Positions 16,507-19,058 of a DNA stretch of 64,000 nucleotides are shown here, one piece after another. The notes beneath the pieces are model-generated. The model was not told the origin of the DNA and ran no database searches. It saw nothing but the letters and a program-made list of their open reading frames with translations. Positions within the stretch are counted from its first letter, which is position 1. Each line of letters begins with the position of its first letter. Source of the DNA: a virus; IMG/VR virus record IMGVR_UViG_3300032562_000016; one strand, 5' to 3'. Made by a program: the position numbers and the translations under genes.

Positions 16507-16827
16507 TTACTCAATATTCCTAAAATTTATATATACAGGCCGAATACTTCTCTTCCCTTTCACTTTCTTTAAAACACCCAACTCCACAAGCCGATCAACC
16601 ATATGGCTCGTACTCCCTATACTTTTTACCCCCCTTTGCTCACATATATCCCTTATAGACGGACTATATCCAAACCTCTTCCACCACTCATCCACAACTA
16701 TAAACACTTCCCTTTGCGCCGGCGTCATATCTTCCTCCAAACATTTTTCAAAAGTTGTCCTCTTTCTAACCGCCATTTCGCGATTTATTAATAACTTCGT
16801 TTTCAAATCTTCTCGTTTTATCTTCAT
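16507..16827 (-). CDS. winged-helix DNA-binding protein (LexA/MarR-like N-domain)
   Basis: 106 aa; SIRDICEQRGVKSIGSTSHMVDRLVELGVLKK resembles a wHTH recognition helix and wing. Immediately preceded by copy A of the 44-bp element. Confidence 0.45.
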   Translation of the reverse strand: MKIKREDLKTKLLINREMAVRKRTTFEKCLEEDMTPAQREVFIVVDEWWKRFGYSPSIRDICEQRGVKSIGSTSHMVDRLVELGVLKKVKGKRSIRPVYINFRNIE

Positions 16828-17878: not shown

Positions 17879-18091
17879 ATGTTATTAAAAGCTAGATTCA
17901 CAATGACAGTAGAAAACTTAGATTTAATCGTTAATCAATATCAGAGTTTAAATGGAAAGGTTAAGTTCTTAACTCAACCTGCATTTAATAGCAATAGTGA
18001 AATCGTAGGCGAACAGAATGAAATTATGTTTTTTATTGGATTTGTTGCAGGACTAGGAGTACATGACTTAGAGCATGTTAATAAAGCTTGA
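17879..18091 (+). CDS. early protein (70 aa)
   Basis: First ORF of a densely packed plus-strand block of small genes; SD AAAGGAAAT before the ATG. Confidence 0.5.
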   Translation: MLLKARFTMTVENLDLIVNQYQSLNGKVKFLTQPAFNSNSEIVGEQNEIMFFIGFVAGLGVHDLEHVNKA

Positions 18092-18104
18092 TAGGTAACT
18101 TTAT

Positions 18105-18133
18105 AAGACTATTCCCGGCGAGTAGTCTTATGA
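18105..18133 (+). promoter_or_regulatory. intercistronic hairpin (ATAAGACTA...TAGTCTTAT, 9-bp stem)
   Basis: Perfect 9-bp inverted repeat seen in the sequence. No U-tract follows, so it is more likely an RNA processing or stability element than a terminator. Confidence 0.35.
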
Positions 18134-18169
18134 GGCATAAGCCTAAAACCCAAAAGGAACTAAAACCAA

Positions 18170-18357
18170 TGCTAACACTATCAACAGAAACTCCACAAAG
18201 CTACTTCACGCCTAAGCAGGCTCAGTTTATTTGTTACCAAAACAATGCGGATGAGTTAGACGGATGGACATATAAAGTAGAAGATGTAAATAACTCTAAG
18301 GGATTAGTAGTAATCCGTGTTTATGACGAAACCGGGCATCCTTTAGGATATTTTTAA
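18170..18357 (+). CDS. early protein (start moved to MLTLSTETPQ...)
   Basis: The track ORF 18088-18357 begins inside the upstream hairpin. The internal ATG at 18170 has an SD (AAAAGGAAC). Confidence 0.45.
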
Positions 18358-18361
18358 TTTA

Positions 18362-18411
18362 GGTTAACTGATGAGACTTTAATAGTCGAAACCGCTCCGG
18401 CGGTCTTAACC
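18362..18411 (+). ncRNA. type-I hammerhead ribozyme; predicted self-cleavage after C18405 (GUC)
   Basis: GGUUAA(stem I)-CUGAUGA-GACU/UUAAU/AGUC(stem II)-GAA-ACCGC/UCCG/GCGGU(stem III)-C-UUAACC(stem I). Every conserved core nucleotide is present, including the G10.1-C11.1 and A15.1-U16.1 pairs. Confidence 0.8.
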
Positions 18412-18431
18412 AAATAAAAGGAAATAAACCA

Positions 18432-18752
18432 ATGAAAGATCATTTATATATTGGCTCAACGCCAACAGATGAGGATTGCGCTCAGGTAGGCTCAGAGAAT
18501 TATGCGAACCGTGCTCGCGCAGAATGTAGACTTTTTGCGATACAGATACTTAAACACTATCCCGAGCCAGAAAAAGGATACTTATCAATAAAGGCTAATT
18601 CGCACGACTTCGGCACTTATTATGAAGTGGTTGCAGTTTATGACGATGAAGATGAGGACTCGACCAATTGGGCATATGACGTAGAAGCGGACGCGCTCAA
18701 CGTTCTATCTAATTGGGATGAAGAACTAAACCCTGCAACTGTTCCCGCCTAA
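18432..18752 (+). CDS. early protein (106 aa, acidic)
   Basis: ORF track; SD AAAAGGAAAT. Confidence 0.5.
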   Translation: MKDHLYIGSTPTDEDCAQVGSENYANRARAECRLFAIQILKHYPEPEKGYLSIKANSHDFGTYYEVVAVYDDEDEDSTNWAYDVEADALNVLSNWDEELNPATVPA

Positions 18753-18803
18753 GGTCTACTGATGAGGCCTAATTGGCCGAAACCCCTTCCCGGGGTATAG
18801 ATC
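18753..18803 (+). ncRNA. type-I hammerhead ribozyme; predicted cleavage after A18797 (GUA)
   Basis: GGUCUA-CUGAUGA-GGCC/UAAUU/GGCC-GAA-ACCCC/UUCCC/GGGGU-A-UAGAUC. All core nucleotides conserved; stem I has one G-U pair. Confidence 0.8.
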
Positions 18804-18824
18804 AACACTAAAGGACTATTAAAA

Positions 18825-19058
18825 ATGTATATTCCAAAAAGAGCTTATAAAGAAATAAACCGGCGACTAGAAGAAGGGCAGACGTACATAGATGCCATTA
18901 AGTACACCGCCTATTCGCACGGACTCGAACCCGTAGAGCTTCGCAAAGCATACGAAACGAGAAGCCACAGACTAGAAGTATTGGACAATTTATCCGTGGC
19001 AATTGGCATGATATTGGTCTTATCTATTCCCGTATCCGCCTTTTTATTTAGGGGTTAA
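18825..19058 (+). CDS. early protein with C-terminal TM segment
   Basis: 77 aa; C-terminal hydrophobic helix AIGMILVLSIPVSAFLF. Confidence 0.45.
   Translation: MYIPKRAYKEINRRLEEGQTYIDAIKYTAYSHGLEPVELRKAYETRSHRLEVLDNLSVAIGMILVLSIPVSAFLFRG

Follow-up and report, generated by a model that had tools for sequence, protein, structure and literature searches.

Two type I hammerhead ribozymes predicted on either side of a conserved small gene in an uncultivated tailed phage

What the hammerhead ribozymes of bacteria and phages are for is still to be defined, according to a 2019 review (PMC6765202). A 64-kb stretch of viral DNA (64,000 nt; IMG/VR record IMGVR_UViG_3300032562_000016; hereafter the window) poses this question in a compact form: two hammerhead motifs, HH1 and HH2, lie in consecutive spacers of an operon and bracket a single gene encoding a 106-aa protein. 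Are these motifs genuine ribozymes, and what would self-cleavage at these places do to the operon transcript? Judged by their sequences and those of their relatives, HH1 and HH2 are real, conserved and almost certainly catalytic, and it is probable that they work as functional type I hammerheads, cutting the RNA of a small-gene operon into uncoupled single-gene messages.

The operon and its two hammerhead elements

The window derives from a tailed phage and encodes a large terminase, portal, tail fibres, helicase and primase; no tRNAs were found in it. A megablast search against cultured phages returned no nucleotide match to the window, and its terminase shares at most 57% identity with terminases from uncultured and Pelagibacter phages. 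Contigs L166-L169, from four separate metagenome samples (SRR11285841, SRR11607847, SRR11607848 and JGI 3300031813), agree with the window at all positions compared within 17879-19058; the phage therefore recurs across datasets, and these contigs add no diversity.

The operon consists of tightly packed small ORFs on the + strand, running from 17879 to approximately 22725, with HH1 and HH2 on the coding strand. Divergent to it lies a 233-aa gene that weakly matches the small terminase. Early in the operon only three spacers exceed 40 nt: 18092-18168, 18358-18431 (HH1) and 18753-18824 (HH2). The search for an operon promoter gave weak consensus matches only, no more than in shuffled sequence. 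That the operon is expressed early is suggested by its small unassigned ORFs, divergent from packaging genes. A 73-aa ORF on the - strand (L167 76-297, corresponding to about window 16507-16728), whose product matches LexA_DNA_bind (PF01726), has the large terminase gene on one side and the 233-aa terminase-like gene on the other; its product may be a small transcription regulator beside the divergent promoter region.

Table 1. Coordinates of the hammerhead elements, the neighbouring ORFs and the predicted single-gene RNA (window positions)
Feature	Position	Strand	Remarks or evidence
Spacer after 70-aa ORF, before 62-aa ORF	18092-18168	+	16-bp hairpin
62-aa ORF, upstream of HH1	18169-18357	+	stop 4 nt before stem I
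HH1, type I hammerhead	18362-18411	+	sequence, descriptor match, R1 model, MFE
HH1 flanking conserved A residues	18361 and 18412-18413		
HH1 stem I 5′ strand	18362-18367		GGUUAA
HH1 core C3-A9	18368-18374	+	CUGAUGA
HH1 stem II and loop	18375-18387		GACU/AGUC, loop UUAAU
HH1 G12A13A14	18388-18390		
HH1 stem III	18391-18404		ACCGC-UCCG-GCGGU
HH1 C17	18405		GUC triplet
HH1 stem I 3′ strand	18406-18411		UUAACC
106-aa ORF between HH1 and HH2	18432-18752	+	
HH2, type I hammerhead	18753-18803	+	sequence, descriptor match, R1 model, MFE, orthologues
HH2 stem I 5′ strand	18753-18758		GGUCUA
HH2 core C3-A9	18759-18765	+	CUGAUGA
HH2 stem II and loop	18766-18778		GGCC-GGCC, loop UAAUU
HH2 G12A13A14	18779-18781		GAA
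HH2 stem III	18782-18796		ACCCC-UUCCC-GGGGU
HH2 A17	18797		GUA triplet
HH2 stem I 3′ strand	18798-18803		UAGAUC; one stem I G-U pair
77-aa ORF downstream of HH2	18825-19058	+	start 27 nt past cut
Predicted 392-nt single-gene RNA	18406-18797	+	deduced from predicted cut sites

Both intercistronic spacers were found to hold a complete hammerhead, with a full core and three helices, as the preliminary description of this DNA had claimed. The assignment of the two elements as canonical type I hammerheads, made there from the sequence, is borne out by core rules and topology, by an independent covariance model, and by conservation with compensatory changes. Core residues C3 U4 G5 A6 N7 G8 A9 and G12 A13 A14 are correctly placed in each element. 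The A15.1-U16.1 pair is formed by A18391 and U18404 in HH1 and by A18782 and U18796 in HH2, and H17 is C18405 or A18797, neither being G. The descriptor assigns stems of 6, 4 and 5 bp to both elements, with G10.1-C11.1 and A2.1-U1.1 adjoining the core; stem I is open while stems II and III are closed by loops, the type I topology. An extendable stem I had also been described for HH1. The extension is present in the minimum free energy (MFE) fold; it is not conserved in the L002 orthologue, and for this reason it was left out of the element.

When both strands of the 64-kb window were scanned with a descriptor, HH1 and HH2 were the only sites, and the three-way junction is the MFE fold of each, both alone and within a 101-nt context. 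An independent covariance model (R1) was built from an alignment of 22 unrelated viral hammerheads of equal length, members of the IMG/VR set described below, with the window and its relatives excluded. Run on the window with filters off, R1 scored HH1 at 65.3 bits (E 1.4e-16) and HH2 at 58.8 bits (E 1.2e-14), the next-best site reaching 12.6 bits (E 0.57).

The Rfam hammerhead search proposed in the preliminary description returned nothing in the window at gathering thresholds. At a permissive E-value, HH2 scored 19.6 bits with Hammerhead_3 (RF00008; gathering 48.5) and HH1 scored 19.4 bits with the RAGATH-1 hammerhead (RF03152; gathering 56.3), the latter over model positions 26-77 only. Twenty related loci likewise gave no match at the Rfam gathering threshold. 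Because R1 scores the two elements at 59-65 bits and Rfam misses the related loci too, the negative result appears to reflect a gap in model coverage; taken alone, the Rfam check would have been a false negative for both HH1 and HH2. An abundant viral type I subclass escapes the curated Rfam hammerhead models.

That curated negative is the one observation in favour of reading the motifs as functionless consensus matches arising by chance in AT-rich spacers. Against it, 300 dinucleotide-preserving shuffles gave an expectation of 0.01 relaxed matches in 64 kb, and no match with stems of the observed lengths; two are observed, both on the coding strand and in adjacent spacers. With the shuffles, the R1 E-values of 1e-14 to 1e-16, and the covariation and compensatory changes described below, a chance origin is refuted and is scarcely conceivable.

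The subclass can be described from other viral contigs. A scan of IMG/VR with the pattern CTGAYGAG-N9-15-CGAAACC gave at least 119 loci (L047-L165), and full type I hammerheads could be drawn in 76 of the 119 listed. Features that the search pattern did not require were counted, among the matches listed, in 59 independent members whose stem II has 4 bp and whose loop II has 5 nt. In 51 of these 59, stem I has exactly 6 bp; its distal pair is G-C (G in 53/59, C in 51/59); an A precedes stem I in 55 and follows it in 47; and loop II reads U-N-A-N-U (U1 56/59, A3 52/59). HH1 and HH2 carry every feature of the subclass: a 6-bp stem I with a distal G-C pair, an A at both -7 and +7, a stem II of 4 bp, the 5-nt U-N-A-N-U loop, and a predicted cut 20-34 nt before the start codon. 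No bulge or pseudoknot that would serve a contact between stem I and loop II was identified in HH1 or HH2. The shared conserved positions outside the core may nevertheless point to a tertiary contact, of the kind needed for fast cleavage at cellular Mg2+.

Several contigs bear more than one hammerhead. Within L079 (2402-3883), the stem I strands of consecutive hammerheads are fully interchangeable though stems II and III differ, and interchangeable stem I strands also occur in the multi-hammerhead contigs L115, L088, L077, L105 and L117. RNAs excised from such contigs could close into a circle containing a complete hammerhead, or the hammerheads may share a common leader.

Conservation of the elements and of their neighbours

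Relatives were gathered through the 106-aa protein rather than through the RNA, which yielded 46 IMG/VR loci. Hammerheads are present in only seven of them: L001-L006, whose 106-aa protein is 81-97% identical, each carry both elements, and L019 (protein 51-52% identical) carries one hammerhead in which all three stems are different.

Among orthologues of HH1 the changes are limited to N7, loop II, loop III and H17. Position 7, the one free core position, is U in the window and C in L002-L006 and is the sole site of core variation among the orthologues, while H17 is C or A and never G; this variation accords with the hammerhead consensus rules listed in PMC3088659. Orthologues of HH2 show compensatory changes, C-G to U-A in stem II and C-G to G-C in stem III. 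In a model-guided alignment of eight distinct sequences, 100% of the cells are paired and eight pairs are changed on both sides. The covariation score was 0.482, compared with at most 0.089 for slid controls, and none of 500 shuffles reached it. Between the window and L002 or L004, HH1 is 94-96% identical, whereas the flanking genes are 74-76% and the leader 75% identical.

The protein that the two elements flank is a conserved phage protein of a widespread family, with 46 IMG/VR loci and 83 database homologues, all "hypothetical". It was assigned to no Pfam, PHROG or NCBIfam family, had no sequence match in the PDB, and gave no tblastn match in cultured phages. The AF2 model is alpha/beta and confident (pLDDT 95), and a Foldseek search of this model against the PDB found nothing significant (best E 0.087). 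Residues P11, E14, C16, Q18, V19, G20, H58, G61, Y63, Y64, E65 and W95 are invariant in the family, and in most relatives the gene is the first after a promoter, beside a terminase-like gene.

Homologues without a hammerhead lie directly behind near-consensus sigma-70 promoters in two lineages, on three contigs. In L009 the promoter is TTGACA-16-TAGAAT (11/12 match); in L012 it is TTGACA-16-TAATAT with a TG extension (10/12 match), and a terminator immediately follows the gene. HH1 and HH2 would bound a 392-nt single-gene mRNA and would therefore resemble the promoter plus terminator found elsewhere.

Gene order was compared between window 17879-19058, L002 2718-3931 and L004 1706-2786. With gA denoting the 70-aa gene and g62, g106 and g77 the genes named by product length, the window reads gA-hairpin-g62-HH1-g106-HH2-g77 and L002-L006 read gA-HH1-g106-g62-HH2-g77. 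L001 keeps g62-HH1-g106-HH2-g77, with a different small hydrophobic ORF replacing gA and no hairpin. In L002-L006, and also in L014-L016, the g62 homologue follows the 106-aa gene. Despite this reordering, each hammerhead still adjoins the same downstream gene.

The hairpin in the window occupies the first of the long spacers, where the preliminary description had suspected a decayed third copy before 18170. Its 16-bp helix pairs 18099-18114 with 18120-18135, and a 5-bp helix lies outside it (MFE -23.8 kcal/mol, z -4.6). The spacer does resemble that of HH1 (alignment z 4.8 versus shuffles; weaker, p 0.024, without the shared leader), which lends the suspicion weak support; it has no core, and R1 gave no match to it at E<=10. 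A third hammerhead copy at 18092-18168 was thus rejected, the catalytic core being destroyed. The hairpin is absent from L001, and an exact search of IMG/VR finds no further copy. The spacer may be a hammerhead relic at most, perhaps dating from the rearrangement in which the 62-aa gene was moved, and a broken hammerhead could here have taken on a new role as a hairpin, stabilising or of RNase III type.

Such rearrangements raise the alternative that the motifs are selfish passengers or module boundaries, short conserved stretches that favour recombination and the shuffling of genes and whose cleavage is of little use to expression. The orders in the window and L001 on one side and L002-L006 on the other differ exactly at hammerhead-bounded units, the 18092-18168 spacer, which falls at a rearrangement junction, has the look of a broken HH1 spacer, and the large majority of loci with the 106-aa gene do without the motif. 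Against it, the catalytic core and the pairing are under purifying selection; the subclass-specific positions conserved outside the core argue for selection on catalysis, and the sharp peak in leader length at 26 nt (see below) does so too, as opposed to selection on mere sequence homology. We consider the passenger explanation improbable.

Predicted processing of the operon transcript

The preferred reading is that HH1 and HH2 act on the operon mRNA. Since they sit on the coding strand in operon spacers, the RNA would be cut just 5′ of the next ribosome-binding site. HH1 and HH2 would be transcribed within the + strand operon, starting near 17879, and each ribozyme would fold once the 3′ strand of stem I has been made, approximately 50 nt past the upstream stop codon. 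Self-cleavage would then follow after C17 in HH1 (18405|18406) and after A17 in HH2 (18797|18798).

The preliminary description placed the cuts 20-25 nt upstream of the start codons; the leaders are slightly longer, 26 nt for HH1 and 27 nt for HH2, and both contain the ribosome-binding site of the downstream gene. This spacing recurs across the class: for unique viral type I hammerheads among the matches listed, the median distance from cut to start is 26 nt, with 71 of 106 lying within 20-34 nt.

Hammerhead cleavage leaves a 5′-OH on the downstream product and a 2′,3′-cyclic phosphate at the end of the upstream product. Each cut would accordingly provide the downstream gene with a 5′-OH leader of 26-27 nt that carries its ribosome-binding site, and would leave the upstream message with a 3′ end made of the GC-rich stem III hairpin and one further nucleotide bearing the cyclic phosphate. 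Both cuts together would free a 392-nt mRNA for the 106-aa protein: a 5′-OH, a 26-nt leader with an AAGGAA ribosome-binding site, the ORF, and then HH2 through its stem III hairpin, with a 2′,3′-cyclic phosphate at the 3′ end. Neighbouring cistrons would become uncoupled in stability and translation with no need for a host nuclease. By generic arguments about bacterial RNA decay, involving RNase E and exonucleases, such ends might resist both 5′-end-dependent and 3′ exonucleolytic decay. What the sequences show is the motifs with their conservation, covariation and placement; cleavage itself, the fate of the ends and the selective benefit are what we infer here.

A role in mRNA processing or expression tuning, suggested in the preliminary description, gains support from the same proposal in the literature (PMC3088659, PMC6765202), from the class-wide 26-nt leader and from the alternation of promoter and ribozyme in front of the 106-aa gene. 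One version of it, in which cleavage unmasks the ribosome-binding site, was dropped: the predicted unpaired probability of the site changes little and inconsistently upon cleavage.

Upstream stop codons are closely placed relative to the ribozymes. Among 106 viral hammerheads in the matches listed, the stop mostly abuts or falls inside stem I, and in L019 the 5′ strand of stem I ends with the TGA stop itself. Of 101 cases among the matches listed, 58 have the stop of the upstream ORF within stem I or the core, as a TAA at the end of stem I or as the TGA in CUGAUGA. HH2 begins right after the TAA stop of the 106-aa gene.

As the stops lie at stem I (4 nt away for HH1, 0 nt for HH2, and similarly throughout the class), a terminating ribosome would cover its 5′ strand, and cleavage might be a conditional switch, gated by terminating ribosomes, Mg2+ or another signal, by which the downstream genes are tuned. 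Regulated cleavage in phages has been suggested before (PMC3088659), and for L004 HH2 and L019 the hammerhead is not the MFE fold in context. In the window, however, the hammerhead is the MFE fold in context, no ligand-binding or extra domain is present in HH1 or HH2, and the cores are fully consensus, as is typical of fast constitutive ribozymes; a switch is therefore an unlikely account of this pair.

Two same-sense hammerheads around one gene also have the geometry of viroid-like RNAs and retrozymes. The active ribozymes might excise the 392-nt RNA, which reversal of the hammerhead reaction or a host ligase of the RtcB type would then join to give a circular or spliced product, a possibility raised by Perreault et al. 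(PMC3088659). Among the matches listed from other viral contigs, 38 consecutive hammerhead pairs include 12 with a fully compatible chimeric stem I, compared with 3.6% of random pairs. In the window, by contrast, the downstream 5′ strand GGUCUA and the upstream 3′ strand UUAACC pair at just four of six positions, with one contiguous pair beside the core; circularisation is on this ground judged unlikely here. The same mismatch is kept in L001-L006, and circular or spliced products were sought by Perreault et al. and none were found (PMC3088659). Of the fates considered for the 392-nt RNA, joining is thus a very improbable one.

Returning to the processing of the operon mRNA into single-gene messages, a more speculative extension, which we put forward tentatively and hold to be doubtful, is that a hammerhead with its 26-nt leader forms a portable, self-insulating expression unit for phage genes. 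Such a unit may give an internal cistron a defined and protected 5′ end, as a private promoter does in other phages; it may stay with its downstream gene through gene shuffling; and it may depend on the tertiary motif of the subclass, the A-A juxtaposition after the 6-bp stem I together with the U-N-A-N-U of loop II. If this were so, proper expression of the 106-aa and 77-aa genes would require cleavage, and the purpose of phage hammerheads would become testable on the HH1/HH2 pair. The locus offers a compact test case, as two consensus ribozymes bracket one conserved gene for which promoter-bearing comparators exist, L012 having a terminator as well; these comparators could reveal whether mRNA stability or translation depends on cleavage.

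Comparison with known systems

HH1 and HH2 share with the Rfam type I models (Hammerhead_1 and Hammerhead_3 of clan CL00010, and RF03152) the catalytic core, the three-helix junction, A15.1-U16.1, H17 and the open stem I. The RF03152 alignment gives HH1 the same helices, the 5′ domain of that model (positions 1-25 of 77) being absent in the window. Unlike those models, stem I of HH1 and HH2 is a simple helix of 6 bp; it lacks an internal bulge, and conserved A residues flank it.

A cultured representative of the subclass was found in Flavobacterium phage vB_FspP_elemoA_7-9A (Elemovirus, MT497017.1), where an unannotated hammerhead (L170 5000-5064) scores 50.1 bits with R1. It has an identical stem II and loop II (GACUUUAAUAGUC), a GUC triplet, and a 6-bp stem I with A before and AA after, and it likewise lies in an operon of small hypothetical genes; it differs from HH1 and HH2 in being a single copy in the 10 kb examined and in its longer stem III. 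The MT497017.1 record places a 35-aa reverse-strand "hypothetical protein" CDS over this hammerhead (L170 4968-5075). The CDS is probably spurious, and genome annotations of cultured phages put doubtful CDSs over such elements.

Two functional analogues may be considered. In T7 early mRNA, RNase III cuts the intercistronic spacers, and the upstream products end in a protective hairpin. That system uses a host protein enzyme and double-stranded hairpin substrates, whereas the HH1/HH2 RNA would cut itself; the predicted ends, 5′-OH and 2′,3′-cyclic phosphate, also set HH1 and HH2 apart from T7 RNase III processing. RiboJ is an engineered part, a type III ribozyme of satellite-RNA origin to which a hairpin was added. 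As an insulator it is a hammerhead just 5′ of a ribosome-binding site that strips away the upstream RNA context; HH1 and HH2 differ in being natural, of type I and located between cistrons.

HHphage, of haloviruses HF1 and HF2, offers a mapped mRNA 5′ end, which lies within three nucleotides of the cleavage site (PMC3088659). In contrast to HH1 and HH2, HHphage is a variant in core and structure that needs high Mg2+, it lies 13 nt from the start codon, and it is the first element of its own transcript rather than an element between cistrons (PMC3088659).

The closest parallel is provided by the clusters of Perreault et al. (2011), in which multiple hammerheads flank single genes or short gene blocks in prophages, as in the triple arrangement around ardA in Agrobacterium tumefaciens, in Clostridium scindens and in Azorhizobium caulinodans (PMC3088659). 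Clustered phage hammerheads cut approximately 2-kb polycistronic RNAs in vitro, and mRNA processing was proposed as their role (PMC3088659). In the window, two + strand copies with predicted cuts 392 nt apart bracket one 106-aa ORF in phage DNA; the clustered arrangement has been known since 2011, and HH1 and HH2 are further examples of it. The two cases have in common same-sense consensus hammerheads in phage spacers, single genes so bracketed, a proposed processing of the transcript to gene-length mRNAs, and flanked genes that are small and vary between examples. They differ in that the window comes from a different, uncultivated phage with an unassigned 106-aa gene, and in that both of its copies are type I and belong to one narrow subclass.
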